Positions 202 to 60,017 are shown, counted from the stretch's first letter. The stretch: 64,000 nucleotides of DNA from Patescibacteria group bacterium (GCA_050943055.1 JBMNOL010000001.1:15750-79749), one strand, 5' to 3'. Made by a program: numbers and translations. Notes: a model not told the origin generated them from the letters alone.

Positions 202-277
202 GCGCCCATGGCTCAGTGGTTAGAGCACCGCTCTTATAAAGCGGGGGTCGATGGTTCGACTCCATCTGGGCGCACCA
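202..277 (+). tRNA. tRNA, probable tRNA-Ile with anticodon UAU (CCA encoded)
   Basis: Cloverleaf folds by hand: acceptor GCGCCCA/TGGGCGC, D-arm GCTC-AGTGGTTA-GAGC, anticodon stem CCGCT/AGCGG with loop CTTATAA (anticodon TAT), T-arm GATGG-TTCGACT-CCATC, discriminator A, 3' CCA. The D-loop resembles the Ile2/Met type. The minus-strand ORF 122-397 across it is spurious. Confidence 0.7.
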
Positions 278-5580: not shown

Positions 5581-6414
5581 TTAGGGGGTCATTTTTAAAT
5601 AAATTTCTTTATTATTAGCAAATATATTTATAGTACCAAGCTCATCGGTGCGAAAAATATTTCCCGTTATCAACGCTAACCTTTTTAAAGTTTCCGGATG
5701 TGGATGAGAAAATTTATTATCCTTCCCTACTGAGATAATGGCGACAAGCGGCTTAACAGTTCTTAAAAAATTTTCCTGACTAGCACTTGAAGCCCCATGA
5801 TGAGAAATTTTTAAAACATCATAGGTGCTTAAACCGCCCACCAACAAATCAGTCTCGATTTCTTGACCAGCATCACCAGTAAATAAAAACTGACGCTGGC
5901 CGCAGACTAATTCACTGACCACCGACTGGTCATTAACTTCTTTACTGGCGGCGGCGCTCAAAATATTAATCCGACAATACTCCCCAAGCGGAAAAGAGTC
6001 AGCAGCAGTAATTTTTTGTTTAGGAATTTTATTTTTTTCTAAATTACTAAACCACTCTTTAATTAAAATATTATCCTCATCTACTTCTCCATAAAAAACT
6101 TGTTTAATTTGATAGCGCTCACCAAGCTCAATCAAACCGAACAAATGATCGCTGTGTTCATGAGTTAGTAAAACAAAATCTAACTGGCGCTGCCACCAAG
6201 GTAAGACGGTGCTCAATTCTTCTAACAGACGGTTATCGGGACCACCGTCAATTAACAAAGTTTTTTTGTCCGGAGTCACAATTAAAATTGCATCGCCTTG
6301 CCCGACGGAAAGAAAAGAAACCTTAACCGAACCCCGCGGATAAAGTGACTGAGGGAGAAAAACCGTCAGACCAAGTGAAAAAAATAAACTACTGACTAAA
6401 AGTAAGCGTTTCAT
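5581..6414 (-). CDS. secreted MBL-fold metallo-hydrolase, ComEC/Rec2-type beta-lactamase-like domain (stand-alone)
   Basis: Signal peptide. HxHxDH motif (LLTHEHSDHLFGL). C-terminal ISHHGASSASQENFLRTVKPLVAIISVGKDNKFSHPHPETLKRL matches the ComEC C-terminal MBL domain pattern. Confidence 0.75.
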   Translation of the reverse strand: MKRLLLVSSLFFSLGLTVFLPQSLYPRGSVKVSFLSVGQGDAILIVTPDKKTLLIDGGPDNRLLEELSTVLPWWQRQLDFVLLTHEHSDHLFGLIELGERYQIKQVFYGEVDEDNILIKEWFSNLEKNKIPKQKITAADSFPLGEYCRINILSAAASKEVNDQSVVSELVCGQRQFLFTGDAGQEIETDLLVGGLSTYDVLKISHHGASSASQENFLRTVKPLVAIISVGKDNKFSHPHPETLKRLALITGNIFRTDELGTINIFANNKEIYLKMTP

Positions 6415-6515: not shown

Positions 6516-6740
6516 TTATTTTTTCTTTTTTGGAGCGGCCTTTTTAACTGCTTTTTTAGGAGCAACTTTTTTCGGGGCGGCTTTTTTAACCATCTTTTTC
6601 ACTGCTTTTTTAGGAGCAGCCATCTTTACAACTTTTTTAGGAGCTGCTTTTTTAACCACCTTTTTAACTGCTTTTTTAGGAGCAACTTTTTTCGGGGCGG
6701 CTTTCTTCACAACTTTTTTAGCCGGTTTATTTGCGGGCAT
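6516..6740 (-). CDS. histone H1-like / KAAPKK-repeat basic DNA-binding protein
   Basis: 74 aa from the second Met. AGGAGGTG lies 6 nt upstream of that ATG; the first Met of the track ORF includes the SD. The protein is almost entirely K/A/P/V repeats (KKAAPKKVAPKKAVKKVV x3), and the DNA is a tandem repeat. Confidence 0.6.
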   Translation of the reverse strand: MPANKPAKKVVKKAAPKKVAPKKAVKKVVKKAAPKKVVKMAAPKKAVKKMVKKAAPKKVAPKKAVKKAAPKKKK

Positions 6741-6853
6741 ATTTTCACCTCCTTTCAATTGGAACTAATTTAAAATTTTTTTTAAAAAAAATTACATCGA
6801 CCGAAAAACTTATTCTAATTATACATCCAGATGAAAACGATAGCAATGCTTTT

Positions 6854-9925: not shown

Positions 9926-10081
9926 AAAAATAAATCTACTCCCAAACCACCAAGAGCGACAGCTTGGAATACTCCCGTTAAATATGCTACAATGTTAACA
10001 AATCTGTCAGTGTTTTTCAATCTTTAAACGCTGTCTTAAAATTTTATTTTTTGCTAAATTTTAAAAAATATTTTTAACTCT

Positions 10082-11152
10082 ATGTCTATCCATCGACCCA
10101 TTTTGAGCGCCTCCTGGCGCTTGGCAACGCGCCGAAAAAAACTCTGGGTTTTTGGTTTTTTTGCCCTCCTGGTTTTTATCGGTGGCGAATACCAGATTAT
10201 TAATCAATCTTTAAATAGTGGCTGGGGCGCTAATATTTATGAACGTCTTCTTGCCAGTAGCAGCTTTTCACCGGAACTCTGGAGCGCACTTCTTGAAGCT
10301 CTAAGCGTTGACTGGCGCACCAGTTTAGCGGTTATTATTTTGATTCTTCTGGTTGCCGGTCTCTTATTCGCGGTTCTTTGGCTCGCGGTTAAATCGCAAA
10401 TTGCCTTAATTCGTTGGGCCAAAAAAGATCACGCGGGCGAAGGCGATGAGGAAATTAGTTTGTGGGATGCCTTCACAGTCAAAGATGGTCGGTTTTGGCG
10501 CGTTTTAGCGGTCGGTGTTTTGGTAGAAATTATTATTTTTGCGGTCGGCGTCTTTTTAAGTCTGCCTTTAATTTATCTGTATTTTAAAAACTCTCTCTGG
10601 GCTATCGCCGCTTACTCCTTATTCTTCTTAATTTTGATTCCGGTCGCCGTTTCCTGCTCACTCTTAGCTAAATACGCCATGGCCGAAATAGTTTTAAACA
10701 AAAAAGGGTTCACTGCCGGCGTCATTAGTGCTGTTGAGCTATTTAAAAAGAATTGGTTGGTTAGCTTAGAGATGGCTTTGATTCTTTTCTTTATCAACTT
10801 TACCGTTAGCTTTATAATTCTCTTCCTCTTAACTTTTGTAGCCTTCCCAATTATGCTAACTTTGATGATCTTTGGCCTAGCCCTCCCGCTGGCATTACTG
10901 ATTCTTACTTGTTTTCTCCTGATAGTTTCCGTCGCTTCTTTCTTGATGACTTTCCAAACTACCGCTTGGACCAATCTCTACTTGGAAATTAAAGAACACG
11001 GTGCGCCCGCTAAAATTGAAAGAATTTTTGAAAAAGGTAAAAGCCCTAAAAAACCTAAGGCGGACAAGGCTCCTGACAAAACTACCAAAGAACCCGCTTC
11101 TAAAAAGCCCCGCCTTACCACCAAAAAAACTACTCCTAAGAAAAAATCCTAA
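10082..11152 (+). CDS. polytopic membrane protein with Lys/Pro-rich C-terminal tail (function unknown)
   Basis: 356 aa with 6-8 hydrophobic helices and a C-terminal KKPKADKAPDKTTKEPASKKPRLTTKKTTPKKKS tail. It is immediately upstream of the tandem ATPase gene (4-nt gap). An extended -10 TGcTACAAT sits upstream. Confidence 0.5.
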   Translation: MSIHRPILSASWRLATRRKKLWVFGFFALLVFIGGEYQIINQSLNSGWGANIYERLLASSSFSPELWSALLEALSVDWRTSLAVIILILLVAGLLFAVLWLAVKSQIALIRWAKKDHAGEGDEEISLWDAFTVKDGRFWRVLAVGVLVEIIIFAVGVFLSLPLIYLYFKNSLWAIAAYSLFFLILIPVAVSCSLLAKYAMAEIVLNKKGFTAGVISAVELFKKNWLVSLEMALILFFINFTVSFIILFLLTFVAFPIMLTLMIFGLALPLALLILTCFLLIVSVASFLMTFQTTAWTNLYLEIKEHGAPAKIERIFEKGKSPKKPKADKAPDKTTKEPASKKPRLTTKKTTPKKKS

Positions 11153-11155
11153 GCT

Positions 11156-14100
11156 ATGAGTCTGAGCTCCATTGACAATTTAATTACCGACGAGGAGCCG
11201 GAAGAAGGCTCACCTTTAGATAACTTTTCTCGAAAACAGAAAGAAATTAAAGTGCGCGAAATCGAACGCGAAGCGGAAGGGCGAGCCCGACTCCTCGGGC
11301 TTCCTTATATTAATCTAGATAGTTTTCCGATTAGCGGCGATGCTTTAGGTTTAATAGAGGAAATGAAGGCTCGCGATTTAAACTTGGTTTGCTTTTTTTA
11401 TGACGGCAAAGATTTTAGATTAGGGACCACTAACCCCACTACCGAAGTAAAAGAATTTGCCGAAGAGCTCCAAAAAAAATTATACGCCAATGGGGTTTTA
11501 TTTTTTATTTCCGAAAATAGTTTACAACACGCTCTTGAGCTTTACAAAAACCTGCCAAAAGTCACCCCTTACACGGGAACGGTCGAAATCAGCCCCCAAA
11601 AATTAGTAGAGTTCCAGGAAGACCTGGCTGATTATCGCAAGCTAAACGAACGGATCAACGAAGTTAATATCAGTGATGTTATTACTTTAATTTTGGCGGC
11701 TGCTATTCGTTCCGGATCTAGTGATATTCATATTGAAGCGGAAGCTCGCGGCTCGGTTATTCGCCTCCGCATTGATGGTGTTTTACACGAAGCGGCAGTT
11801 ATTACTGGTGAGAAGTGGCGACGAATAGCTACCCGTCTAAAAATTCTCGCTAAAGCAAAAATTAATATCACCGACCAGCCTCAGGATGGTCGTTTTAGTG
11901 TTCGCTTTAACGATCGCAAGCTTGATGTCCGCTGCTCTTTTTTACCAACAGCTTTTGGTGAGAGTGTGGCGCTGCGCCTACTCGACTCCTCCGCCCAATC
12001 TTTATCTTTTGAGCGCCTCGGTTTACGAACGGAAGTTTTAAAAATACTGAAAGCGCAAATCAAGAAACCAAACGGCATGATTTTAACCGCTGGTCCGACC
12101 GGCTCCGGAAAAACGACGACTCTTTATGCGATTTTAAACGAATTAAATAAGCCGAATATAAAGATTATTACTCTAGAAAACCCGATTGAATATCAGTTAC
12201 CGGGGATTAACCAGAGTCAAATTTCTGAAGATAAGGGCTATACTTTTGCCGAGGCCTTACGCTCGGTCTTGCGCCAAGATCCAAATATTTTAATGGTTGG
12301 CGAAATCCGCGATTCGGAAACAGCTAAGATTGCTTTACAATCTTCAATTACTGGCCATTTAGTTTTATCAACCATACATACCAATGATGCCGCGGGCGTG
12401 ATTCCGCGCTTACTAGATTTAGAAGTTGAACCTTATCTACTGCCACCGGCTCTAAACGTCGTTATCGGTCAACGTTTAGTGCGCCGGCTCTGTCCGCACT
12501 GCCGCGAATCTCACGAATTGAGTAATCTAGAAAAAGAACAAGTTAATAAAATTATTGGGGTCATTTCACCAAAGTCGGGCATAAGCGTCCCCGACCAGTT
12601 GCCTCCTCTCTGGAAAGCAGGCAAAGGTTGCCCAGAATGCAGTTATACCGGATACCATGGCCGAATTGGAATTTACGAACTGTTTACGATGGATGAAAAA
12701 ATAAAACAGTTAACCATTGATCGGGCGCCGTCTTTTAAAATTCTGCAACAAGCCATTGAGAATGGAATGATCACCATGCTTCAAGATGGTATTTTAAAAT
12801 GTTTTGAAGGTATTACTTCAATTGAAGAGGTTTATCGTGTAGTCGGTGATTTTGATTATATCAACGAAATCTACGATATCGTTATTTCTCAAACTATTGG
12901 TCGCGGTCTAATCATCAAGGAGGCTGACCTTACCCAAGCGAAAGAAACCCCGGTTGATGTTAAGACGCTTTCAGAACAGGTTAAAGTAATATCGCCCCGA
13001 GAAATTGTTAATTTGATTATGTCGCTAGCGATTGTTAAAGACGCGGGCGATGTTCACATTGAACCAACCGATAATTTAGTTAAAGTTCGTTTTCGAATTG
13101 ATGGCGTCTTACACGACATTGTTAATCTCCCCAAAACTTCCTATTTGCCGGTTTTAGCGGAAATGAAGATTTTAGCCGGCTTCGAAACCAACGTTAAGCG
13201 CGCCACTCTTGATGGCCGCTTTAGCTTGCATCTGCCCCAACAAAAAATGGACTGCCGCATTTCTATTATCTCTGGCGGCTACGGGGAAACGATTGTAATT
13301 CGTTTATTATCGGCGGCCGCGGTGAATTTAGATTTAGAAAAACTAGGTGTCAATGGTCCTTCTTTTGATTATTTGACTAAGGCGATGTCTAAGACTAAGG
13401 GCATTATTATTACCACCGGACCAACCGGCTCCGGTAAAACCACCACCCTCTACGCAATTTTGAATAAGTTAAATCGGCCCGATATTAAAATTATCACTGT
13501 TGAAGATCCAATTGAGTATCAACTACCAGGGACCATTCAAACTCAGATTGATACCGAACGGGGCTACACTTTTGCCTCGGCCATGCGCTCCTTGCTACGT
13601 CAAAATCCAAACATCATGATGATTGGCGAAATCCGCGATGCGGAAACCGCCAAAATTGCGATTGAAGCGGCCTCAACGGGGCACTTAGTGCTCTCGACGA
13701 TTCACGCTAATTCGGCGGCAGGAGCGATTTCTCGTTTCTCCGGTTTAGGAGTTGAGCGCCAAGCGCTGGCTAACACCTTAGAGTTTTCTATCGGCCAACG
13801 CCTGGTCCGTCGTCTTTGTAAATATTGCCGCCAGCCCGCACACATCGACGAGGAAACTCTCAGCCACGTACGCAGCATTTTATTACAAATTAAAAATCCT
13901 AAAATTAAAATCCCCCAAGATTTAATATTTTATACCGCTCCTGGTTGTCCGCACTGCAACCATATTGGCTACAAAGGAAGAGTGGGGATCTATGAGACTA
14001 TCACTACTACACCCACCATCATGAAACTGATTCAAGATAACCTCATTACCGATTATGAAATTGAGCAAGCGGCGATTGCGGAAGGAATGGTGCCAATTGT

Positions 14101-14167
14101 AGTTGATGGCATTTTAAAAGCTTTAGCCGGAGAAACCAGTTTAGACGAAATTTTTAGAGTAATTTAA
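11156..14167 (+). CDS. tandem-duplicated PilB/GspE-family secretion ATPase (two complete T2SS-E ATPase modules fused in one 1003-aa protein)
   Basis: Module 1 has a GSPII_E N-terminal domain, Walker A GPTGSGKTTTLYAILNEL, Walker B/Asp box LMVGEIRDSETA, His box GHLVLSTIHTND and a tetracysteine CPHC...CPEC. Module 2 has an N2-like domain, Walker A GPTGSGKTTTLYAILNKL, IMMIGEIRDAETA, GHLVLSTIHANS and CKYC...CPHC. Confidence 0.85.
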   Translation: MSLSSIDNLITDEEPEEGSPLDNFSRKQKEIKVREIEREAEGRARLLGLPYINLDSFPISGDALGLIEEMKARDLNLVCFFYDGKDFRLGTTNPTTEVKEFAEELQKKLYANGVLFFISENSLQHALELYKNLPKVTPYTGTVEISPQKLVEFQEDLADYRKLNERINEVNISDVITLILAAAIRSGSSDIHIEAEARGSVIRLRIDGVLHEAAVITGEKWRRIATRLKILAKAKINITDQPQDGRFSVRFNDRKLDVRCSFLPTAFGESVALRLLDSSAQSLSFERLGLRTEVLKILKAQIKKPNGMILTAGPTGSGKTTTLYAILNELNKPNIKIITLENPIEYQLPGINQSQISEDKGYTFAEALRSVLRQDPNILMVGEIRDSETAKIALQSSITGHLVLSTIHTNDAAGVIPRLLDLEVEPYLLPPALNVVIGQRLVRRLCPHCRESHELSNLEKEQVNKIIGVISPKSGISVPDQLPPLWKAGKGCPECSYTGYHGRIGIYELFTMDEKIKQLTIDRAPSFKILQQAIENGMITMLQDGILKCFEGITSIEEVYRVVGDFDYINEIYDIVISQTIGRGLIIKEADLTQAKETPVDVKTLSEQVKVISPREIVNLIMSLAIVKDAGDVHIEPTDNLVKVRFRIDGVLHDIVNLPKTSYLPVLAEMKILAGFETNVKRATLDGRFSLHLPQQKMDCRISIISGGYGETIVIRLLSAAAVNLDLEKLGVNGPSFDYLTKAMSKTKGIIITTGPTGSGKTTTLYAILNKLNRPDIKIITVEDPIEYQLPGTIQTQIDTERGYTFASAMRSLLRQNPNIMMIGEIRDAETAKIAIEAASTGHLVLSTIHANSAAGAISRFSGLGVERQALANTLEFSIGQRLVRRLCKYCRQPAHIDEETLSHVRSILLQIKNPKIKIPQDLIFYTAPGCPHCNHIGYKGRVGIYETITTTPTIMKLIQDNLITDYEIEQAAIAEGMVPIVVDGILKALAGETSLDEIFRVI

Positions 14168-14170
14168 TTT

Positions 14171-14746
14171 ATGCTTAATAAGAAATTTTTTGCTGATTTA
14201 ATTGCTAATTATCGTGACCAATCCGAATCACGACGAGAGATTATCGCCGCCACCGCTCCAGTGTTATTTGCGGCCAAAACAGCCATCTTCTCTCTACACC
14301 GAGGCGAAGAAGAAAAGGCGCGCCAATATTTAGAAACGGCCACAACCACTCTAAAAACTTTACAAACAGACTATTCGATTAAACGACTAGAAGAAGAAGG
14401 TACTTACCGAGCGGCGGTTGAAGAATTTGCTGAAGCCTCCTTCTTGGAACAAGTAGTTTTAAAAAATACTTTAAGTGCTAATCCTGAAGTCACCTTAAAC
14501 CACGAAGCTTACTTGGGTGGCTTATGTGATTTAGTTGGCGAGTTAGTCCGCTTGGCAACCAACAGGGCCGCGGCCGGACAACTTGAAGCGCCCGCGGAAT
14601 TAAAAATCTTAGCTGACGAAATCCTGGCGACTTTAGCGCCGGCAAATTTTACCAGCTATTTGCGAACAAAATACGACCAAGCTAATAGCCACCTGCGCAA
14701 ACTTGAACAGATGGCTTACGAAATTCGTTTACGTCAAAACACATGA
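14171..14746 (+). CDS. translin-family protein (bacterial homologue)
   Basis: 191 aa. The segment NHEAYLGGLCDLVGELVRLATNRAAAGQLE matches the conserved translin/TRAX core (compare human YLLGVADLTGELMRLAI). The protein is all-helical and sits 4 nt after the ATPase gene. Confidence 0.6.
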   Translation: MLNKKFFADLIANYRDQSESRREIIAATAPVLFAAKTAIFSLHRGEEEKARQYLETATTTLKTLQTDYSIKRLEEEGTYRAAVEEFAEASFLEQVVLKNTLSANPEVTLNHEAYLGGLCDLVGELVRLATNRAAAGQLEAPAELKILADEILATLAPANFTSYLRTKYDQANSHLRKLEQMAYEIRLRQNT

Positions 14747-15237
14747 GCTTAGTAGCAATTTTTTCCGATCTCCATGACAATCTAAGTAACTTAGATTTAT
14801 TTTTAACTAAGGCCCGCGCCCAAAAAGTCGCGGCCCTTATTTTTACCGGCGACCTAACCAGTGCCGAAACCTTAGATTATCTCGTCTCGCAGTGGGACAG
14901 GCCGCTCTATTTAGTTAGTGGCAATGCTGATTTTTTTCGAAGTAATGATGTTAAAAAACACCCCCACCTTATTTATGCGGAGAATTATTTAGATTTTACT
15001 TACGAGAATTTTCACTTCTTAATTGCTCACAAGCCAACAGATTTAAAAAAAATTCTCGTCACTAACACTGTTTACGATTTCGCTTTTTATGGTCACACGC
15101 ACCGGCCCTGGATTAAAAATGAAGGCGGTGTAATTATCGCCAACCCCGGCAACTTAAAAGATGGCTTTGGCCAAGCCACCTACGCTCTTTTAGACACAAG
15201 GAGTGGTCACTTAAAATTAAAAAAACTGAGCGATTAA
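14743..15237 (+). CDS. metallophosphoesterase (YfcE/MJ0936-like calcineurin-type phosphoesterase)
   Basis: Motifs DLHDN, GDLTS, GNAD and GHTHRPW. The ATGA start overlaps the translin gene stop. Confidence 0.8.
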   Translation: MSLVAIFSDLHDNLSNLDLFLTKARAQKVAALIFTGDLTSAETLDYLVSQWDRPLYLVSGNADFFRSNDVKKHPHLIYAENYLDFTYENFHFLIAHKPTDLKKILVTNTVYDFAFYGHTHRPWIKNEGGVIIANPGNLKDGFGQATYALLDTRSGHLKLKKLSD

Positions 15238-15243
15238 CAAAAA

Positions 15244-15270
15244 CGGCTCCAGTCAGGAGCCGTTTTTTTA
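15244..15270. terminator. bidirectional terminator
   Basis: CGGCTCC-agtc-AGGAGCCG hairpin flanked by A-run and T-run. It serves the + operon and uvrA on the minus strand. Confidence 0.7.
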
Positions 15271-40526: not shown

Positions 40527-41897
40527 ATGTTAAAAAAACCTCTTTTGCTCGCATCTTTATTAATTTTTTTTGTAGGAGCTGGTTTCGGCTGTCAAACAAA
40601 AATAGACGAAGCCACTTTAAAAGCTTCAGAGCCAATCAAAATTGTTTTTTGGCAAGCTTTTGATGATTCGGATGCTTTTTCAGAAGCAATCAAAAAGTAC
40701 CAAGAGCTACACCCCAACGTTACCATTGAATATAAAAAATTCCGTTACGAAGAGTATGAAAATCAGCTTTTAAACGCTTGGGCTGAGGACCGGGGGCCGG
40801 ATATTTTTGCCATCCATAATACTTGGGTCAAAAAATACCAACCAAAAATTACCCCCTTACCAGAATACACTTCAATTGCTTTTTTCGTAGAAAGTACGGG
40901 TTTTAAAAAAGAACTGGTTCCCGAATTAAGAAGTATTAGAAGTTTAAGCACTAGAGAACTTAAAAATAATTTTGCCGATGTTGTGGCTACAGACGCTATT
41001 TTAGAAGATGGCTTAATTTATGGCTTACCTTTATCGGTAGACACCTTAGCTCTTTATTACAATCGCGATCTACTAAATAGTGCTGGAATCGTGGAGCCGC
41101 CCCGTTACTGGAACCGAGAATTCCAGCAAGCCGTTAAAAAGATGACTAAACAGGATCCTAAAAAAGGTTTAGTCCAATCAGGAATTGCTTTAGGAACGGC
41201 GAATAATATTAATCGGGCCAGCGACATTTTGGCGGTCTTAATGCTACAAAATGGCGCCACTATAATTGATAACAATCGAGTCGTCTTTAACCAGGTCCCC
41301 CCTTATATTACTAGCGGCTACAACCCCGGACTAGAAGCCCTTCGTTTTTATACCGACTTTGCCAACCCCAACAAAGAAGTTTATTCCTGGAATGCTGACC
41401 AAGAGAATGCTTTAGATGCCTTCACTAGTGGCAATCTGGCGATGATGCTGGGCTATTCTTTTAACTTGGAGCAAATTCGCTCGCAAGCGCCAAAATTAAA
41501 CTTCGGCGTCGCCAAACTGCCGCAAATAGAGGGTAATCAGCTCCAAATAAATATGGCTAATTATTGGCTCTTAACCGTTTCTAAAAAAAGTGAACATAGT
41601 GATGTGGCCTGGGATTTTATCCAGTTTTTAACTAAAAAAGAAAACGCCGATGTTTACTTAGAAAAAACTGGTAAACCGACTGCTTTAAAAGCTAGTATTA
41701 ATGACCAGAAAAATGATGAATATCTTGGTCCTTTTGCGGAACAAGTCTTAAGCGCTAAAAGTTGGTATCGTGGCCTTAGTGCTCAGGATGCCGAAGCGGC
41801 CATGGGGGAAATGATTAAAAACGCCTTAAATCCTAATTTTAAGATAATAGACGTTTTAAATGATGGGGCGATTAAAGTTCAACAAACAATCCGCTAA
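40527..41897 (+). CDS. ABC-transporter extracellular solute-binding lipoprotein (family 1, sugar-type), orphan
   Basis: Lipobox LLASLLIFFVGAGFGC and SBP_bac_1-like fold features. No permease or ATPase genes are adjacent. Confidence 0.65.
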   Translation: MLKKPLLLASLLIFFVGAGFGCQTKIDEATLKASEPIKIVFWQAFDDSDAFSEAIKKYQELHPNVTIEYKKFRYEEYENQLLNAWAEDRGPDIFAIHNTWVKKYQPKITPLPEYTSIAFFVESTGFKKELVPELRSIRSLSTRELKNNFADVVATDAILEDGLIYGLPLSVDTLALYYNRDLLNSAGIVEPPRYWNREFQQAVKKMTKQDPKKGLVQSGIALGTANNINRASDILAVLMLQNGATIIDNNRVVFNQVPPYITSGYNPGLEALRFYTDFANPNKEVYSWNADQENALDAFTSGNLAMMLGYSFNLEQIRSQAPKLNFGVAKLPQIEGNQLQINMANYWLLTVSKKSEHSDVAWDFIQFLTKKENADVYLEKTGKPTALKASINDQKNDEYLGPFAEQVLSAKSWYRGLSAQDAEAAMGEMIKNALNPNFKIIDVLNDGAIKVQQTIR

Positions 41898-41901
41898 TTA
41901 T

Positions 41902-42300
41902 ATGAAGTTAAAAAAAATTATTCCCCCTCTTCTTTTTCTTGGTTTTATAATCGTCGGGCCAGGGCTTACTCACGCCCAAAGCTTGGTTGATACCACCGAT
42001 CCGGCTTATGCTACCGGAGGTTACACCCTAGATCATATTCGCAATTATTTAATTTATTTAATGTATTTTATTTTAGGTCTCGTAGGCACCCTCTCCTTAG
42101 CAGCTTTTGTTTATGGTGGTATTGTTTTTTTAACTTCGGCCGGCTCCGATCAGAAAGTAAAAAAAGGGAAAGACATTTTAGGAGCAGCGGTAATTGGTTT
42201 ACTAATTGTCTTTTCCAGTGTTTTAATTATTCAAACCCTATTTAATGGCTTAGGAATTAAATGGGACGCCACCAAAGGAACTCTTCCTGATATAAAATAA
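41902..42300 (+). CDS. T4SS-pilin-like (TrbC/VirB2-like, CPR 'pilin') small membrane protein
   Basis: Start moved to the ATG at 41902. Signal peptide, TM helix and the motif GGIVFLTSAGSDQKVKKGKDILGAAVIGLLIV, related to the array at 44410-46972. Confidence 0.6.
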   Translation: MKLKKIIPPLLFLGFIIVGPGLTHAQSLVDTTDPAYATGGYTLDHIRNYLIYLMYFILGLVGTLSLAAFVYGGIVFLTSAGSDQKVKKGKDILGAAVIGLLIVFSSVLIIQTLFNGLGIKWDATKGTLPDIK

Positions 42301-44409: not shown

Positions 44410-44793
44410 ATGAAAAAATTGACAAAACACTTATTGTCTTTGGTGTTACTGCTCTCATTGGTAGCGATCCCAATGACAACCTTGGCGAGTGGCGGATTAA
44501 ATGTAAACGATCTCGGCGTTGATGAAATTGATAACACCTTAGATTTAGGGAGACGCAGCCCAATTGAAACTGTAACTAGATTAATTAACTCAGCTATGAT
44601 CTTCTTAGGCATCATTGCTGTCGGGATTATCTTGGTTGCTGGCTTTAAGTGGATGACAGCTGGAGGTAGTGAGGATAAGGTTAGCGAAGCTCAAAAGTTA
44701 ATGTCCTCTGGTGTTGTTGGCTTAATCATCATCTTAGCCGCTTGGGGTATTGCCTACTTCATTTTGGAAATGGCAGTTGATGTTACCCAATAA
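44410..44793 (+). CDS. T4SS-pilin-like protein, paralog 1
   Basis: Signal peptide, TM helix and the motif GFKWMTAGGSEDKVSEAQKLMSSGVVGLIIILAAWGIAYF. Confidence 0.7.
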   Translation: MKKLTKHLLSLVLLLSLVAIPMTTLASGGLNVNDLGVDEIDNTLDLGRRSPIETVTRLINSAMIFLGIIAVGIILVAGFKWMTAGGSEDKVSEAQKLMSSGVVGLIIILAAWGIAYFILEMAVDVTQ

Positions 44794-44898
44794 AAAAATT
44801 TTCAGAAATCGATTCTTGAAAAACGGTCCCTCATTTTTTTATGGGGGGTACCGCCGCGAGCCGGAAATAGTTGCGACTCGCAGCCGTAATTAGTTTTT

Positions 44899-45318
44899 AT
44901 GAAAACTTTTCGCATTTTTTTGCTACTTGCTATTTTCTCTTTTGTTGGCCTGTTTTTACCGGCGACTTCTGGAGCGACCAATAAAGGGATAGAAAAAACC
45001 TTAGAGGGTTTAAATGAGACTGTTAAGGGAGAAGGGGCGGATGGTGGAATTGGTGCCTATAAATCGCAAGTAGATGAAGATCCTCAGAATATTTTAACGA
45101 AACAAGTCACTGATATTATCTCCTTGATTCTTTCTTTTCTTGGGGTTATTTTCTTAGTCATTACTATTTATGCCGGTTTTCTCTGGATGACGGCCAACGG
45201 CAATGACACTCAAATTAAGAAAGCTAAAGATTTATTAATGAATGCTATTGTTGGTCTAGTTATTATTACCGCCGCCTACTCACTAACCGCCTTTGTCGGC
45301 AATCAGCTAACTCGTTAA
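44899..45318 (+). CDS. T4SS-pilin-like protein, paralog 2
   Basis: GFLWMTANGNDTQIKKAKDLLMNAIVGLVIITAAYSLTAF. Confidence 0.7.
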   Translation: MKTFRIFLLLAIFSFVGLFLPATSGATNKGIEKTLEGLNETVKGEGADGGIGAYKSQVDEDPQNILTKQVTDIISLILSFLGVIFLVITIYAGFLWMTANGNDTQIKKAKDLLMNAIVGLVIITAAYSLTAFVGNQLTR

Positions 45319-45319
45319 C

Positions 45320-45736
45320 ATGAAGCGCTTTATCACCACCATTCTTATTGTCAGTTCTTTATTTTTTGGCTTAAGCACCCAAGCTTCTTATAATTTTATC
45401 AGTGATAGTGGCCTAAAAAAAACTGGCGAAAATTTAGGCTATCAAACCGACCAAAACACCGACACTTTTATTGAGTCTTACATTGGTCAAATACTTACCC
45501 TTGTTTTTTCGATTTTAGGCTTAATTTTCTTTGTCTTAATTATCTATGCCGGCTTTTTGTGGATGACCGCCCAAGGTAACGATAGTAAGGTCAGTGAAGC
45601 AAAAAAGATTTTGACTAATGCGATTATTGGTTTGGTTATTGTTCTCGCCTCCTACGCTATCAGTTATTTCGTCTTTAGCGCCTTAACCCCAGCGGTGGAA
45701 ACAGCCACCGAAACGACAGCAGTGGTTGGAGAATAA
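45320..45736 (+). CDS. T4SS-pilin-like protein, paralog 3
   Basis: GFLWMTAQGNDSKVSEAKKILTNAIIGLVIVLASYAISYF. Confidence 0.7.
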   Translation: MKRFITTILIVSSLFFGLSTQASYNFISDSGLKKTGENLGYQTDQNTDTFIESYIGQILTLVFSILGLIFFVLIIYAGFLWMTAQGNDSKVSEAKKILTNAIIGLVIVLASYAISYFVFSALTPAVETATETTAVVGE

Positions 45737-45743
45737 TTATTAT

Positions 45744-46148
45744 ATGCTTAAGAATCAAAAAATTTTCACCCTTTCTCTGGCTTTGCCCCTTTTACTGAAT
45801 AGTCTTTTATTTTTAGCCCCGGCCAGCGCGACTACCACCACTACTGGCGTCAAGGGCGCTTTTTCTTCCGAAGGAAAATTAGGAGACTTTGCTAAAGATG
45901 TTGGTTATAATCAAGAACCACAAACCCCCGAATACTATGTCGGTTTGGTTATCAATATTATCTTCTCACTTTTGGGAGTTATTGCTATCACCTTAATAAT
46001 CTTTAATGGTTTTAAGTGGATGACGGCGGGCGGTAATGATAATAAAGTTAAGGAAGCCCGGGGGGGATTAACTAGCTCAATTCTCGGATTACTAATTATT
46101 TTGGCTAGTTATGCTATCACCTTTTTTGTCTTTAATATTTTTACTTAA
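45744..46148 (+). CDS. T4SS-pilin-like protein, paralog 4
   Basis: ATG at 45744; the track's TTG start at 45726 overlaps the previous gene. Motif GFKWMTAGGNDNKVKEARGGLTSSILGLLIILASYAITFF. Confidence 0.7.
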   Translation: MLKNQKIFTLSLALPLLLNSLLFLAPASATTTTTGVKGAFSSEGKLGDFAKDVGYNQEPQTPEYYVGLVINIIFSLLGVIAITLIIFNGFKWMTAGGNDNKVKEARGGLTSSILGLLIILASYAITFFVFNIFT

Positions 46149-46157
46149 AAACTGTTT

Positions 46158-46562
46158 ATGAAAAAAATTCCTTCTTGGTTAATAGTTATTTTTTTAACCA
46201 CCATCCTGATTATCCCGGGTTTAGTTTTTGCCGGTAACAATATTATTAAAGACAGTGCCTCGCCCCTAGAACGCCTTAACAATGCGGCCACCAATTATGG
46301 CCCTTTTTCTCAAACTGCTACTGAAACCTCGGCGGCCTCCATTATCGGCTTAGTAATTAATGTTATCTTGGGAATACTAGGAGTTATTTTCCTCGTTCTA
46401 ACTATTTTAGCGGGTATTCAATGGATGACGGCCGGCGGCAATGATGCCAAAGTAAAGGAAGCTCAAGGATCAATCACCAGAGCGGTTACAGGATTAGTCG
46501 TAGTTGTCTCTTCTTACGCTATCTGGCTTTTTATTCAAATGGCTTTTTTATCAAAAATATGA
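46158..46562 (+). CDS. T4SS-pilin-like protein, paralog 5
   Basis: GIQWMTAGGNDAKVKEAQGSITRAVTGLVVVVSSYAIWLF. Confidence 0.7.
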   Translation: MKKIPSWLIVIFLTTILIIPGLVFAGNNIIKDSASPLERLNNAATNYGPFSQTATETSAASIIGLVINVILGILGVIFLVLTILAGIQWMTAGGNDAKVKEAQGSITRAVTGLVVVVSSYAIWLFIQMAFLSKI

Positions 46563-46972
46563 AACATCTTTTTTATTCCTTTATTGGTACCACTCTTCTT
46601 ATTGTTCCAAGCATTGTCCTGGCCTCAACAACACCCGCCTCTGGTCTTAATACTGAAAAAATGGATGCTCAGACCCAAGCTCTTACTCAGGCAGCCGGTT
46701 TAGGACAAAACACTAGCTTAAGCTTTATTATTGCTACTCTTATTCAGGTCCTATTAGGATTTTTAGGAATAATTTTTTTAATCCTGACAATTGTTTCCGG
46801 TTTTAAATGGATGACTGCTCAAGGCAATGAAGATACAATTAAAAAAGCCCAAGGAACTTTAATGAATGCTATTATTGGCTTAGTAATTGTCCTTGCCGCT
46901 TATATTATTACCACTACTTTATTTAAATTACTGCCTTTTTCGGGCGGTAGTGGCGGCGTTACCGGCGGCTAA
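46559..46972 (+). CDS. T4SS-pilin-like protein, paralog 6
   Basis: GFKWMTAQGNEDTIKKAQGTLMNAIIGLVIVLAAYIITTT with a Gly-rich C-terminus. ATGA overlap with paralog 5. A bidirectional terminator lies at 46995-47025. Confidence 0.7.
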   Translation: MKHLFYSFIGTTLLIVPSIVLASTTPASGLNTEKMDAQTQALTQAAGLGQNTSLSFIIATLIQVLLGFLGIIFLILTIVSGFKWMTAQGNEDTIKKAQGTLMNAIIGLVIVLAAYIITTTLFKLLPFSGGSGGVTGG

Positions 46973-55237: not shown

Positions 55238-56179
55238 TTAATAAACGACTTTTGATTTCTTTATTTGATTTCTAGTTTGTAAATATTTATAAGCGGACAG
55301 TGCGGCCGTGGTCGCTTGTCCAACAGCCACCGTTATTTGTTTGTATTCGCTTTTATTGGTAACATCTCCAGCCGCGAACAAGCCAGGAGTTTTAGTTTCC
55401 ATTAAATTATTAACAACAAGCTGTAAACTATCATCACGATCAACTAAATCAGCTACAACATCAGTGTGAGCAATGCGACCAATTTCAATAAAGACACCAT
55501 CGACTGCTAACTCTTTTACTTCACCACCTGGTAATTCATAAACAATTTTTTCAACCTTACTGTCGCCGGCAATTTCTTTAACCACCGCATCGGCAATAAT
55601 AGTAATATTTTCTCGTTCTTTAACCTCAGTGATTAGAGATTCAAAAGCCTTAAAGTTTTGGTTGCGGTGCACCAGATAAACCTGGTTGGCAATTTTGGAA
55701 AGCATCTCCGCTGAATCAAAAGCGGAGTTGCCACCACCAATCACCACCACCGTTTTCCCGCGATATAAAGGGCCGTCACAATTAGCACAATAGGAAACGC
55801 CGTGCCCCATAAGCTCCACTTCTCCAGCGACCGCTAAACGGCGCGGCGATAAACCGATAGTTAAAATAACCGTCTTTGCTAAAAATTCTTCTTTATTTGT
55901 ATAAACTTTAAAAGTTTCATCGGCCATTTTTTCTAAACGCACCACTTCCGCTGTTTTGAGTTCGGCACCAAAAGAAAGCGCTTGATCGTGTAAGCGCTCA
56001 ATAAATTCAAAATTACTAATATTTTTAAAACCAGGATAGTTTTCAATTTCGGAAGCCCAAACTACCTGACCCCCTAATTGCTTACCGATAATCAAAGTTT
56101 TCATTTCTCGACGAGTTGAAAAAATAGCCGCCGTTAAACCGGCTGGACCTGAGCCAACAATTATTGTGTCGTATAACAT
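55238..56179 (-). CDS. trxB: thioredoxin-disulfide reductase
   Basis: FAD site MLYDTIIVGSGPAGLTAA, redox-active CANCDG, and NADPH site VVIGGGNSAFDSA. Confidence 0.85.
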   Translation of the reverse strand: MLYDTIIVGSGPAGLTAAIFSTRREMKTLIIGKQLGGQVVWASEIENYPGFKNISNFEFIERLHDQALSFGAELKTAEVVRLEKMADETFKVYTNKEEFLAKTVILTIGLSPRRLAVAGEVELMGHGVSYCANCDGPLYRGKTVVVIGGGNSAFDSAEMLSKIANQVYLVHRNQNFKAFESLITEVKERENITIIADAVVKEIAGDSKVEKIVYELPGGEVKELAVDGVFIEIGRIAHTDVVADLVDRDDSLQLVVNNLMETKTPGLFAAGDVTNKSEYKQITVAVGQATTAALSAYKYLQTRNQIKKSKVVY

Positions 56180-56208
56180 AAAAGGAAAAGAATTATTTCT
56201 TTAAGTTG

Positions 56209-56239
56209 AAATTATAACCTTTTTTTAATTTCTTTTCAA
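56209..56239 (-). promoter_or_regulatory. canonical sigma-70 promoter for trxB
   Basis: Minus strand: -35 TTGAAA (56234-56239), 17-nt spacer, -10 TATAAT (56209-56214), about 23 nt 5' UTR before the trxB ATG. Confidence 0.6.
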
Positions 56240-56266
56240 ATTTAAGCCTTTATTTTTATTATTTCA

Positions 56267-56298
56267 CTAATATTAGCTATTCTTACTAATATTAGCTA
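56267..56298. repeat. two direct copies of a 13-nt motif, each containing a perfect 10-bp palindrome
   Basis: CTAATATTAGCTA at 56267-56279 and 56286-56298. CTAATATTAG is its own reverse complement. The centre-to-centre distance is 19 bp, and the motifs lie 30-60 bp upstream of the trxB -35. Confidence 0.4.
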
Positions 56299-57002
56299 AA
56301 TAATAAGTGTTCTTTGAAAAACAATATGATTAGAAAAAATTTAAGAATTTAAACCTCTTAAAAAATATTTAACTTAGAGAAAATTAGTAACAAAAAACTC
56401 TTTAAAAAATAATAATTTTAAGAAAAGTTTTTAAAGAAGAATCCCTCCCTTTTTTCTAAAGCCTAATAACTAAAAAACTAACTCACTTTTAAATTTTATT
56501 TTCAACAAAAAGCTTAACTCAAATATATTGTATTTTTAAACTATCTAATTTTAACCTTTTTGAGAAAATCCTTATCTAAATATATTTTAATAAATTACAA
56601 TTCTTTTTTGGGGAATTTTTAAAATCTATACCATTTTAATTAAAAATACTTTTTATGTTCCTTAAGGAACTTGACTATTTTTTAAAAGGGTAAAAATGTC
56701 TTTAAAAAAATAAAGAGATAAGTCCAGAGTGTTGTCGACTTATCTCCTTAAAAAATATTTTCTTTATTTTTTCTTTAGATTACCTTTAATTTAAAATCAA
56801 GAGATTATCTTAACTATCACCATCACCTTAGTCTGGGCATAAATCTATTTTTTAAATCAAAAAAGGGGAAAGATCAAAAAATAAATTAAACCAAACAATT
56901 ATTTATTAAACCAAAAAAGACTCTTAATTCTTAAAACCCACCCCTTAATTACCCAAAAAACTTCAACTTTTCTAAAATTATTTGCTAATATTAATTAAAT
57001 TG

Positions 57003-57076
<74 letters not shown>

Positions 57077-57155
57077 ATTTTAAAATTTAACACGACAATC
57101 ATAACTAATTTAATAAAATTAGTAAAGACTGCCTTTGTATTTTTTACAGGATCGG

Positions 57156-57227
57156 CGTCTTCGTCAGGAATCGAACCTGAATCTAGAACTTAGGAGGTTC
57201 TTGTTCTATCCATTGAACTACGAAGAC
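57156..57227 (-). tRNA. tRNA-Arg (anticodon CCU)
   Basis: Reverse complement GTCTTCGTAGTTCAATGGATAGAACAAGAACCTCCTAAGTTCTAGATTCAGGTTCGATTCCTGACGAAGACG with discriminator G. Confidence 0.75.
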
Positions 57228-57355
57228 CAGGAATTCTTTCTTTAGTATGCTTTTTTTATTATTTTAAGTCAATTATTTTTTGACAAATGACCACCTATCG
57301 CTTAGAATTAAGTTGTTATTAATAACAACCCGCGCACGCTTGGGTTTTTAAAATT

Positions 57356-57763
57356 ATGTTTAACAAAGAAATGAAACTAGAAAAATTTAAGGATGCCGAA
57401 ACCGTTATTGGCTCGTCAGTTTTTGTTAAGGGTGACTTCCATGGCACCGGAAACATTATCATTGAAGGTAGTCTTGAAGGTAGCTTAAAAACTGATGCTG
57501 ATGTCTATATCGGCGAAAAAGCCCAAGTTACTGCTACTATTGAAGCGGCCAATGCCACTATCAACGGCCAAATTAACGGTACGGTAAAAGTTAGTCAGTA
57601 TCTAGCCTTAGGAAGCACCGCCAAAATTACTGGTGATGTTAATTTTCAAGAACTTTCTGTTGTTAGGGGTGCTCTGATTAATGGTCGCCTAAGCAGTCAT
57701 GGTGCTGGTCGCAATAAAAAAAATGCCCCCGATAAAAAAGATGTTTTAGTAGAAGACGAGTAA
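57356..57763 (+). CDS. bactofilin-family cytoskeletal protein
   Basis: DUF583 beta-helical repeats: VIGSSVFVKGDFHGTGNIIIEGSLEGSLKTDADVYIGEKAQVTATIEAANATINGQINGTVKV. Confidence 0.85.
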   Translation: MFNKEMKLEKFKDAETVIGSSVFVKGDFHGTGNIIIEGSLEGSLKTDADVYIGEKAQVTATIEAANATINGQINGTVKVSQYLALGSTAKITGDVNFQELSVVRGALINGRLSSHGAGRNKKNAPDKKDVLVEDE

Positions 57764-57786
57764 TTTATTGATTAGAAGGGGCGCTT

Positions 57787-58539
57787 ATGAACATCTATAT
57801 TTACGATGATTATTTAAATAAACCAAAATACAGCCGCATTTTAAACCGGGTTGAGATTCGTTTGACTGATTTAAATTTAAACGGAAAGATTATTCGTTTA
57901 GGAACCATTAGAAATGTCTCCGATGTTATTCAAAATGAAATAAAAAACGGTGCTAAAACTATTGTTGCGGTTGGTAATAATCAAACGGTAAGTAAGGTGA
58001 TTGGAGCGATCATTGATAATGAGCTTTACGGCTTCTTTCAAAAAAATATTCTCTTTTCTATTATTCCTATTGGTGAAGATAACTCCATTGCCGAATCTTT
58101 AGGTATTAAAGCTGGTGAAGAAGCTTGTAATATTTTACTTGCTCGTCATATCAAAAAAATTGATATCGGGATTATTAATAACTATTACTTTTTAAATAAG
58201 GTTAGTTTGCCTAGTGCTGGTGCTGTCTTAGAGTTTAAAGATAATTTTTCTTTAAGCACTAATCAAAAAGGGATAATTGAAATTTTTAATCTTCGTAGCG
58301 CCACCGGTGATGATAAAAACTTAAAAGTTAACCCGGTTGATGGTTTGTTGGATGTTTACATAAAAACTGGTAAGGGGGTTAAAGATTTAACTCGTTTAAG
58401 TACCGACAATTTAAAAATCAGCGCCGCTGGCGCTGAACTGGTTGTTGATGGGGCTCTTAGTTTACCGGCACCGGCTAACATTAGTATTGTTCGCGGCAAA
58501 TTAAATGTCGTGGTTGGTCGCGATCGTAGTTTTGATTAA
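57787..58539 (+). CDS. DAGK_cat-like (YegS/BmrU lipid-kinase fold) protein with degenerate catalytic motifs
   Basis: TIVAVGNNQTVSKVIGAI aligns to the GGDGT block with GNNQT in its place. FSIIPIGEDNSIAESLGI aligns to the P-x-GTGND block. Confidence 0.45.
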   Translation: MNIYIYDDYLNKPKYSRILNRVEIRLTDLNLNGKIIRLGTIRNVSDVIQNEIKNGAKTIVAVGNNQTVSKVIGAIIDNELYGFFQKNILFSIIPIGEDNSIAESLGIKAGEEACNILLARHIKKIDIGIINNYYFLNKVSLPSAGAVLEFKDNFSLSTNQKGIIEIFNLRSATGDDKNLKVNPVDGLLDVYIKTGKGVKDLTRLSTDNLKISAAGAELVVDGALSLPAPANISIVRGKLNVVVGRDRSFD

Positions 58540-58571
58540 AAAAAACCGAACAGTCAAGTTCGGTTTTTAAA

Positions 58572-59324
58572 TTATTTTTCTTCAGAAACAGAGACAACTA
58601 CTCCATCAATAGGGCCTTGGTCCTGTTTTTTTTGAATTAAAAATTGCTGCAGTACAGTTAAAAGGCTAAAAATGAGCCAATAAAGAGTTAGTCCGCCCGG
58701 TAAATACAAACCAAAAATAATTGTCATTATGGGGAATAAATAAGAAGATTGTTTGCTCATTATTGCCGCCATATCCTCCATTCCTGAGCTTTTAGCAGTA
58801 GCCACTGTTTTAGTCTGATTCTTTAACATCATTTTACTTTGAATAAACTGAGCTGCCCCGGCTAAAATCGCTAAAACAACAACCGGTTGACCCAAATCAA
58901 CACCAAAAGAAATTGAACTAATCTCGGCCGCCGAACCAACAAAAGAATAAACTAAATTTAAATCCTCGGTTAGGCCCACTCGTAAAGATTGGAAAATTGC
59001 ATAAATAAAAGGAAGTTGAATTAAAAGAGGTAAACAAGAGGAAAAGGGATTTATTTTATGTTTCTTATACAATTCCATGGTTGCCCGACCTAAAGCCTCT
59101 TTATTGTCAGCATATTTCTTCTTTAATTCATTTAATTCAGCTTGAACTCCCTGTATCGCCAGTTGTGATTTAGTTGATTTTTGTGACAACGGCCAAAAAA
59201 TTAATTTAACAATAGTTGTTAATAAAATAATAGCAATCCCTAGATCACCCACCTGACCATATAAAAACACTAAAAGGTTGAGAATTGGTTGATAAAAGAT
59301 AACTTGAAAAAGGTTGCCAAACAT
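58572..59324 (-). CDS. yidC: membrane protein insertase YidC (short Oxa1-type)
   Basis: QPILNLLVFLYGQVGDLGIAIILLTTIVKLIFWPLSQKS and five TM helices of the 60 kDa IMP core. Confidence 0.85.
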   Translation of the reverse strand: MFGNLFQVIFYQPILNLLVFLYGQVGDLGIAIILLTTIVKLIFWPLSQKSTKSQLAIQGVQAELNELKKKYADNKEALGRATMELYKKHKINPFSSCLPLLIQLPFIYAIFQSLRVGLTEDLNLVYSFVGSAAEISSISFGVDLGQPVVVLAILAGAAQFIQSKMMLKNQTKTVATAKSSGMEDMAAIMSKQSSYLFPIMTIIFGLYLPGGLTLYWLIFSLLTVLQQFLIQKKQDQGPIDGVVVSVSEEK

Positions 59325-59336
59325 ATGTTTTATAAA

Positions 59337-59675
59337 TTATTTTAAACCACTTTTTACTAACAAATCATTGAGATTTTTATGTAAGTCTTCGTAAGATAAG
59401 TTTTTAATTTCCGGCTTAGTAACAATAACTAGATCGTAACCTTGCTTTAAGGTTTTATTTTCCTGATAAAATATCGCCCGCAGGCGACGCTTATAAAGAT
59501 TGCGAAGAACCGCTAATTTACTTACCTTTACCCCCACCAAAATACCCACACGATTAAATCCTAAATCATTATTAAAATATTTTAAACCTAAAGAACCGCT
59601 ATAAACAGAGCGGCCTTCTTTAAAAATGGAGCTAAACTCCCGGTTTTTTGTTAATCGATTTTTTGCGGGTAACAT
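59337..59675 (-). CDS. rnpA: ribonuclease P protein component
   Basis: 112 aa. Basic RnpA pattern LTKNREFSSIFKEGRSVYSGSLGLKY...RVGILVGVKVSKLAVLRNLYKRRLR. Confidence 0.8.
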   Translation of the reverse strand: MLPAKNRLTKNREFSSIFKEGRSVYSGSLGLKYFNNDLGFNRVGILVGVKVSKLAVLRNLYKRRLRAIFYQENKTLKQGYDLVIVTKPEIKNLSYEDLHKNLNDLLVKSGLK

Positions 59676-59693
59676 CCCTATTTTTGACTATCA

Positions 59694-59831
59694 TTATTTA
59701 GTCAAACTTTCTCTTCCTTTATCGCGTCGACGTTTCAAAACAGCCCGTCCATCCTTAGTCTCCATTCTACTCATAAAACCATGTTTTGTGCTGGCTCTTT
59801 TTTTATTTGGCTGATAGGTTCTTTTTGGCAT
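59694..59831 (-). CDS. rpmH: 50S ribosomal protein L34 (not in the ORF track, 45 aa)
   Basis: Hand translation of the minus strand gives [45 protein letters not shown], which matches the L34 consensus. It lies in the classic position upstream of rnpA. Confidence 0.85.
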
Positions 59832-60017
59832 AAAAAATGTTTGTTTCTACATTTAAAGTCTAATTCACTCTATCATTTTTATTTCGAACGGTCAATAATT
59901 TTTTTCTTTCTTATTTTTAACAATTATTAACAATTTACCCACATCTTGTAAACATTTTTCGCTTGTTAAAAAGTTTTTTATTAAATATAATGGAATCATA
60001 TTCTTACTCACCCCCTT

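Follow-up and report, generated by a model that had tools for sequence, protein, structure and literature searches.

Four consecutive genes in a 64,000-nt stretch of DNA from a Patescibacteria group bacterium (called the window below, always at its full length) encode a polytopic membrane protein, a tandem ATPase of the GspE/PilB type, a TRAX-like protein of the translin family, and a metallophosphoesterase. This gene combination is real and conserved, it is undescribed in the searchable literature, and each of its components comes from a known family. The initial annotation of the window had not recognized it as a described system, and our literature searches likewise retrieved no description. 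We favor, with about even confidence, the interpretation that the four genes form a composite operon, i.e., that two modules with separate evolutionary histories were joined once, in the ancestor of a Falkowbacteria-like clade, and have been co-expressed since.

The first and presumably older module would comprise the membrane protein, which resembles DUF7544, followed by the hexameric motor ATPase. Many Patescibacteria encode this module immediately behind ftsH, with an ATPase that consists of one unit only. In the clade represented by the window the ATPase appears to have been duplicated and fused with both halves remaining catalytically intact, and three such chains may assemble into a ring of six ATPase units. 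The ATPase would drive a machine of the type IV filament type, the pilins and platform of which would be encoded elsewhere. The second module would comprise the translin and, tightly coupled to it, a phosphodiesterase of the MJ0936/YfcE type. As a hollow homo-oligomer, the translin would cut single-stranded RNA or DNA into short pieces with Mg2+, like the archaeal NeC3PO, and the phosphodiesterase may trim or dephosphorylate its products, either their ends or short oligonucleotides. It was probably in the ancestor of a single clade that this second module came to lie behind the ATPase, and it has been vertically inherited since then. The compact unit is predicted to contain intact sites throughout, namely two ATPase units, a C3PO-type active site, and a phosphodiesterase site. 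Co-expression may serve a common purpose, in that a nucleotide auxotroph would break down nucleic acid that it has imported, and a shared role of the four genes in nucleic-acid scavenging is plausible.

Organization of the operon

The four co-directional open reading frames (ORFs) were all recovered on the plus strand at exactly the positions given in the initial annotation. Together with the features that surround them they are:

10082-11152, plus strand, membrane protein, 356 amino acids (aa)
11156-14167, plus strand, tandem ATPase, 1003 aa
14171-14746, plus strand, translin, 191 aa
14743-15237, plus strand, phosphoesterase, 164 aa; the start codon overlaps the translin stop codon (ATGA)
9926-10081, divergent intergenic region between argS (minus strand) and the operon, 156 nt, AT-rich
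9964-9993, sigma-70-like promoter candidate (TTGGAA, 18 nt, TG-n-TACAAT), consensus match only
10014-10042, second sigma-70-like promoter candidate, consensus match only
15239-15267, bidirectional intrinsic-terminator-like hairpin, 12-bp stem with 6 GC pairs, A and T runs on either side

The upstream region is common to the operon and the divergent argS-glyS pair, and the hairpin occupies the entire 30-nt gap between the phosphoesterase gene and the convergent uvrA gene. No convincing internal transcription signal was found inside the operon. Judged from this layout, the four genes are arranged as a single predicted transcription unit.

The junctions read TAA-gct-ATG, TAA-ttt-ATG, and then the ATGA overlap. 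The genes had been described as separated by 4-nt gaps or overlaps, which is correct for the 4-nt overlap; the two spacers are 3 nt long. The short gaps had also been taken as a pointer to translational coupling, and this argument could not be upheld. Gaps of at most 10 nt are found between 19 of the 44 same-strand neighbor pairs in the window (43%), the coding density of which is 88%, and therefore the tight spacing alone is not beyond chance. As short gaps are generic in this genome, gene spacing was rejected as evidence for coupling.

Distribution and modularity

Synteny was analyzed in 80 loci that were kept from a scan for translin genes with one genome per species, and 50 of these loci have full flanks. 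The gene string recurs in Falkowbacteria-like Patescibacteria, at 49 of the 50 full-flank species loci, and co-occurrence of the four genes in related genomes, on which the earlier proposal of a common system had been made to depend, was confirmed. Counted gene by gene, the ATPase and the membrane protein are each retained in 49 and the phosphoesterase in 47-48 of them. In the whole set, a tandem ATPase precedes the translin at 66 of the 80 loci, two of them with a pilin gene in between, and a single-unit ATPase does so at about five; the translin stands alone at two (L068 and L086), and the remaining loci end at contig ends. Also retained in these 80 loci are the genes for GlyRS, ArgRS, and UvrA, a gene of the PLD family, and one for a patatin. 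Because three of these genes, which do not belong to the operon, are kept nearly as well in the 50 full-flank loci (GlyRS in 47, ArgRS in 44, and UvrA in 47), most of the co-occurrence within the clade mirrors general synteny, and neighborhood conservation within the clade was rejected as a proof of function.

The nearly equal conservation of the flanks would be expected if the four were unrelated housekeeping genes on a shared transcript, the adjacency of which reflects phylogenetic inertia in a compact genome with conserved gene order. The translin and the phosphoesterase would then be involved in RNA/tRNA processing and turnover, the ATPase would be a type IV pilus assembly ATPase, and the membrane protein would act together with FtsH. 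The high proportion of closely spaced gene pairs in the window fits such an explanation, as does the adjacency of ftsH and the membrane protein gene, which is the most widespread link of all. Further support comes from the aminoacyl-tRNA synthetase genes that flank the operon, from the two solitary translin genes, which adjoin aminoacyl-tRNA synthetase genes or yebC and ruvC, and from the occurrence of unrelated genes between translin and phosphoesterase in one lineage. In archaea, TRAX homologs adjoin translation/tRNA genes, and an ancestral TRAX-SepRS operon has been proposed (PMC5424206), which favors an RNA-processing role for the translin. However, several observations are difficult to reconcile with mere inertia. 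The tandem ATPase, the translin, and the phosphoesterase have stayed together in a locus in which both flanks have changed and the membrane protein is missing (L087, with FtsK on one side and the ATP synthase on the other). In an FtsH context the translin is still found behind the ATPase at only about 42-48% identity. In addition, short intergenic distances have been maintained over about 70 species, with a median gap of 19 nt between ATPase and translin, and of 3 nt, with many 4-nt overlaps, at the junction of translin and phosphoesterase, which is the tightest of the operon. We consider the housekeeping explanation unlikely. It overlaps with the composite operon that we favor, and the main difference is that it denies a selective value of co-expression.

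The composite operon draws on the variation that is seen among the loci. A second lineage has the order FtsH, membrane protein, single ATPase, and translin, followed by PGA_cap and/or an amino-acid permease before the phosphoesterase, and the link of ATPase, translin, and phosphoesterase has also survived in L030 and L056, which have the FtsH context. An independent anchor was provided by a metagenome scan with a profile of distant membrane-protein homologs (the first sequence of which is Magasanikbacteria-like), which yielded 53 loci that extend by 2.5 kb or more downstream. The membrane protein is directly followed by a single ATPase at 25 of these loci, by a tandem ATPase at 14, and by none at 14, so that the two genes are adjacent at 39 of 53 loci, with identities as low as 27%. 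The translin follows the ATPase at 11 of 11 loci with a tandem and at 8 of 25 loci with a single ATPase, and ftsH lies within 400 nt upstream of the membrane protein gene at 22 of 46 loci. The ATPase occurs without the membrane protein as well, at L087 and at L176-L179. Magasanikbacteria-like loci have a conserved bitopic protein of 380 aa in the place of the translin (18 loci: L090 8920-10062, others among L095-L119), which has no Pfam match above threshold and a weak precomputed match to Baseplate_J. In these loci the membrane protein, the single ATPase, and the 380-aa protein form an alternative three-gene unit. The string of ftsH, membrane protein, PilB-like ATPase, translin, and phosphoesterase is thus a stepwise one, and each of its links is optional somewhere.

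Third-party records of metagenome-assembled genomes (MAGs) that contain the locus (L007, L009, L011, and many more) are titled "uncultured Gammaproteobacteria bacterium", which is apparently a default label and not the actual taxonomy.

The translin and the phosphoesterase

The assignment to the translin family, for which a check with a hidden Markov model had been advised, was confirmed with PF01997 (64.5 bits versus a gathering threshold of 25.9, with 3-204 of the 205 profile positions covered); the catalytic tetrad is kept and the C3PO fold is matched. The residues E85, E88, D120, and E124 are invariant in 20 translin homologs. They align with the metal-binding residues Glu82, Glu85, Asp117, and Glu121 of NeC3PO (NEQ131 motifs QEYVEA and GDIAGE), the equivalents of which in HsTRAX are Glu123, Glu126, Asp193, and Glu197 in the numbering of the same study (PMC5100593). 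When the profile of the 20 homologs was searched, NEQ131 (5jr9, 1.6e-16) and AfTRAX ranked ahead of the eukaryotic translin and TRAX. The AlphaFold2 model (predicted local distance difference test score, pLDDT, of 94.6) has the seven-helix translin fold, with Foldseek TM-scores of 0.79-0.82 to NeC3PO and of 0.80 to AfC3PO. Sequence, residues, and modeled fold agree in placing the protein in the TRAX-like catalytic subgroup. Typical of this subgroup is a hollow octameric or hexameric assembly with Mg2+-dependent nuclease activity, and the homology to C3PO of archaea makes it probable that the protein, too, is a homo-oligomer that cuts single-stranded RNA or DNA with the aid of Mg2+; NeC3PO has been reported to cleave single-stranded DNA as well as RNA (PMC5100593).

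With the archaeal homomeric C3PO proteins (NEQ131/NeC3PO, 5JR9; AfTRAX, 3ZC0) the translin shares PF01997, a length of about 190 aa, the all-helical fold at a TM-score of about 0.8, and the four metal-binding acidic residues with an Arg after them. As in archaea, a single translin-family gene is seen in the region, which points to a nuclease that is self-sufficient as a homo-oligomer, in contrast to the eukaryotic heteromer of translin and TRAX. In contrast to archaeal C3PO, however, the protein is of bacterial (Patescibacteria) origin, it is only about 22% identical, and its genome context is different. Here, a PilB-type ATPase is encoded upstream and the phosphodiesterase gene overlaps, whereas translation genes surround the Nanoarchaeota homolog that was examined. 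A search with an NEQ131 fragment, made to look for an ancient pair of translin and phosphodiesterase in archaea, gave only five Nanoarchaeota matches, and the single neighborhood examined among them contains neither a phosphoesterase nor an ATPase.

Among bacteria, the two papers PMC5100593 and PMC5424206 report proteins of the translin superfamily from Chloroflexi only, with reference to Gupta et al. 2012. The Chloroflexi translins are likewise encoded by a single gene per bacterial genome and have a close affinity to the archaeal proteins, but they belong to a different phylum, and the translin described here is widespread (at least 326 species genomes) and located within a conserved operon. 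The homolog search yielded 619 clusters at 90% identity, nearly all of about 191 aa and from Patescibacteria/Falkowbacteria MAGs, and translin relatives were confirmed at 326 of 372 pattern-matching stretches with one genome per species. The earlier statement that translins are rare in bacteria therefore does not apply to this lineage. Full-text literature searches that paired translin with Patescibacteria or with the candidate phyla radiation (CPR) found nothing relevant.

The metallophosphoesterase had also been named correctly. The protein scores above the cut-offs of Metallophos_2 (PF12850; 90.6 bits versus 27) and TIGR00040 (YfcE family; 61.5 versus 56.25), and its metal-ligand set is complete, with D9, H11, D37, N61, H96, H118, and H120 at least 95% conserved in 76 orthologs. 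The closest solved relative is MJ0936 of Methanocaldococcus jannaschii (2ahd), which, like YfcE of Escherichia coli, belongs to the same small single-domain calcineurin-like family with the same metal ligands. By these sequence features the protein is assigned to the YfcE/MJ0936 phosphodiesterase family. We know of no description of translational coupling to a translin gene for MJ0936 or YfcE.

The tandem ATPase and the membrane protein

The view that the second gene encodes a tandem ATPase of the secretion/pilus type proved right. The protein has two PF00437 T2SSE stretches (749 bits), and it aligns with the PilB and GspE profiles over the full length. Its units and nucleotide-binding motifs are:

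residues ~1-565, first unit, N-terminal T2SSE_N/MshEN-like region and core
residues ~570-1003, second unit, N2 and core only
residues 313-320 and 755-762, Walker A motifs

In 72 distinct tandem orthologs, neither half has lost its Walker A or Walker B motif, its Asp or His box, or its four Cys, and the catalytic residues of both halves are 100% conserved. The first half scores 462, 471, and 235 bits against PilB (TIGR02538), GspE (TIGR02533), and ComGA (NF041000), respectively, and the second half 399, 412, and 234 bits, all of which are below the NCBIfam equivalog cut-offs of 675.65, 630.25, and 300. The single-unit orthologs of relatives are likewise under these cut-offs, which are exceeded only by the summed tandem score. 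The profile matches thus classify the protein as an ATPase of the GspE/PilB type, without an equivalog-level assignment to PilB, GspE, or ComGA. Tandem ATPases are rare: about 13-14 representatives of roughly 1000 aa were counted among 15,724 matches with E 1e-30 or better in 1.84 billion cluster representatives (50% identity).

The protein resembles the assembly ATPases GspE (type II secretion), PilB (type IV pili), and ComGA (competence pseudopili) in its full-length match to the PilB/GspE profiles, in the T2SSE_N-like region at its N-terminus, and in its motifs, namely Walker A and B, the Asp box, the His box, and the tetracysteine Zn motif. Unlike them, it combines two complete units in one chain of 1003 aa. 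Furthermore, in contrast to the systems in which they operate, no PilC, PilM, PilT, or PilD is encoded next to it, and the partner is a polytopic membrane protein other than PilC. Four other lineages of tandem ATPases (40-46% identity; L176-L179) have neither the membrane protein nor the translin nearby. One of them is followed by RuvC after a 6-nt gap, another sits between PolX and RuvB, and two are located behind a divergent PolI-TsaE pair, one of these with a DHH phosphoesterase directly upstream.

Neither Pfam nor NCBIfam has a family that the membrane protein matches above threshold. The protein is all-helical and polytopic (AlphaFold2, pLDDT 76), and W22, F24, G25, E230, P256, and W296 are invariant in 32 homologs. 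The match to DUF7544 is weak (9.5 bits versus a cut-off of 27); similarly weak matches were obtained for 18 of the 32 homologs to DUF7544 (best E 3.5e-5) and for 3 of the 32 to Choline_transpo (PF04515). The Foldseek top matches are hCTL1 and PNS1, with E 0.07-0.3 and TM-scores of only 0.33-0.40. From sequence and model, the protein may be called DUF7544-like, and it may be distantly linked to the choline-transporter-like (CTL) fold. The Lys-rich tail that had been ascribed to it is real (residues ~306-356, with 18 K/R in the last 51 residues), but it is not conserved and occurs only in close relatives of at least 53% identity. As it is absent below about 53%, a role as a conserved nucleic-acid-binding element was rejected. 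An identity as PilC/GspF was also rejected, because a T2SSF match is lacking and the topology consists of many short-loop helices. DUF7544-like proteins are often encoded directly downstream of ftsH without any ATPase (among L097-L174, e.g., L108, L111, L131, and L140), and the primary association of the membrane protein may be with FtsH.

The frequent adjacency of membrane protein and ATPase, at 39 of 53 loci, together with the conserved bitopic third gene at 18 loci, could indicate a membrane machine that is independent of PilC. The polytopic protein would replace PilC/GspF, the PilB-like ATPase would energize another kind of transport (of lipids, small molecules, or proteins), and third partners would be lineage-specific, namely the 380-aa bitopic protein in Magasanikbacteria-like genomes and the translin with the phosphoesterase in the window. 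The weak hints from fold and sequence at a transporter of the CTL/SLC44 type and the lack of pilus genes in the neighborhoods examined are in agreement with such a machine. To our knowledge, however, every known motor of the GspE/PilB type works with a platform of the PilC/GspF/FlaJ type. Moreover, the fold match is weak (TM-score at most 0.40, E at least 0.07), each of the two proteins also occurs without the other, the membrane protein at 14 of the 53 loci and the ATPase at L087 and in the four tandem lineages, and a pilin gene is inserted in two operons. We regard a PilC-independent machine as very improbable.

Relation to pilus genes and possible role in nucleic-acid uptake

No prepilin motif was found in the six frames of the window, and PilC (T2SSF), PilM, and PilT are absent both from the window proteins that were scanned and from the flanks annotated in the relatives examined. 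The partners that define a type IV pilus, type II secretion, or competence pseudopilus system, which are the platform PilC/GspF, the alignment proteins PilM/N/O or GspL/M, the prepilin peptidase, and pilins, were not found next to the operon in the window. As type IV pilus genes of the CPR usually co-localize (PMC6744442), the ATPase could be a non-pilus paralog, and this weighs against the composite operon as formulated above. Three further points have to be set on the same side: the recurrent pairing of membrane protein and ATPase hints at a dedicated complex, which a composite operon leaves unexplained; the phosphoesterase is missing altogether in one species (L045); and PGA_cap and the amino-acid permease split the translin from the phosphoesterase in the FtsH-context lineage.

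In two species, a type IV prepilin gene (KAFTLIELLVVIAIIG N-terminus, Cys-rich C-terminal domain) is inserted between the tandem ATPase and the translin:

L040 8902-9981, inserted prepilin gene
L048 8669-9520, inserted prepilin gene

These are 2 of the 176 sequences scanned (175 loci and the window). The insertions show that the clade has type IV pilins, and they tie the motor loosely to them.

The initial annotation had proposed nucleic-acid handling such as DNA uptake, processing, or export. The components on which this proposal was built had been named correctly, but the string is modular and each link is missing somewhere, and we retain the proposal as conjecture. In its most explicit form, all four genes would be co-selected members of one scavenging pathway, in which the PilB-type motor, together with pilins and ComEC encoded elsewhere and perhaps with the membrane protein, imports environmental DNA or RNA, and the translin and the phosphodiesterase degrade the strand for salvage. 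It has been argued that CPR bacteria scavenge DNA, since most of them cannot make nucleotides (PMC6744442). The activity of NeC3PO on single-stranded DNA in addition to RNA (PMC5100593) would suit the translin for this task. The ATPase and the translin are adjacent in at least three different flanking contexts, and the prepilin genes inside the operons of L040 and L048 also speak for the pathway. The same can be said of the other tandem ATPases next to RuvC, RuvB, PolX, and the DHH phosphoesterase, but such neighbors are expected by chance in genomes rich in nucleic-acid genes, as the small genomes of Patescibacteria appear to be. For each link of the pathway there is a lineage that does without it, the non-operon flanks (44-47/50) are kept within the clade almost as well as the operon (49/50), and no ComEC, PilC, or DprA gene is found nearby. 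Conserved flanks, generic tight spacing, and facultative links all weaken the notion of a single system. In addition, the archaeal homologs of TRAX are found among translation/tRNA genes and not among uptake genes (PMC5424206). An integrated scavenging pathway would be attractive for a nucleotide auxotroph, but its support is circumstantial, and on balance it is doubtful.

A still more specific version, which we hold to be improbable, is one dedicated feeding line, in which three tandem chains of the PilB-type motor would sit as a trimer on the membrane protein, import extracellular nucleic acid, and hand the strand over directly to the C3PO-like cage nuclease and the phosphodiesterase, which would convert it to nucleotides. 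An anti-phage defense system was also considered and discarded, as PADLOC-DB gave short P-loop matches for the ATPase only and nothing for the other three proteins.

Other features of the window

Several features of the window outside the operon were recorded:

202-277, plus strand, tRNA-Ile with the anticodon TAT (ARAGORN)
5581-6414, minus strand, secreted/anchored protein of the metallo-beta-lactamase (MBL) fold (Lactamase_B, 59.7 bits; HEHSDH motif), upstream of glyS in many relatives
6516-6758, minus strand, between glyS and the MBL-fold gene, protein of 80 aa that consists nearly throughout of Lys/Ala/Pro/Val repeats (AAPKKV and similar), reminiscent of histone H1-like DNA-binding proteins
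41860-42300 and 44410-46972, plus strand, about 7 small paralogous ORFs (127-146 aa) with a signal peptide, two transmembrane helices, and the motif GF(K/L)WMTAGGN
56000-64000, replication-origin region
58572-59324, minus strand, YidC
60018-61403, DnaA
61648-62775, DnaN

A tRNA-Ile with the anticodon TAT is uncommon in bacteria, in which AUA is usually read by a lysidine-modified CAT anticodon. The MBL-fold protein may resemble the C-terminal domain of ComEC. Two tested ORFs of the array of small paralogs match PF18895 T4SS_pilin (38.2 and 30.1 bits), and a recent paper on the type IV secretion system of Patescibacteria (PMC12102498) may deal with the same family. The origin region has a GC content of 0.30-0.34, and the cumulative GC-skew minimum is near 58-60 kb.

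Implications

The Patescibacteria represent a large part of bacterial diversity and are mostly unable to make nucleotides, and the locus bears on the question how nucleic acids are acquired and processed in this group. It offers three testable handles: a widespread bacterial TRAX-like nuclease with a predicted intact active site, a rare fused double motor of the PilB type, and a conserved membrane partner other than PilC, which is usually linked to ftsH. Should the feeding line exist, it would place a bacterial translin/TRAX nuclease in nutrient acquisition and would provide a PilB-type ATPase with a PilC-independent partner. If the two modules of the composite operon cooperate, they would link motors of the pilus type to the cytoplasmic breakdown of nucleic acids. 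If they are independent of one another, the pair of translin and phosphodiesterase would still be a candidate replacement for RNases that are missing from the reduced genomes of these bacteria.

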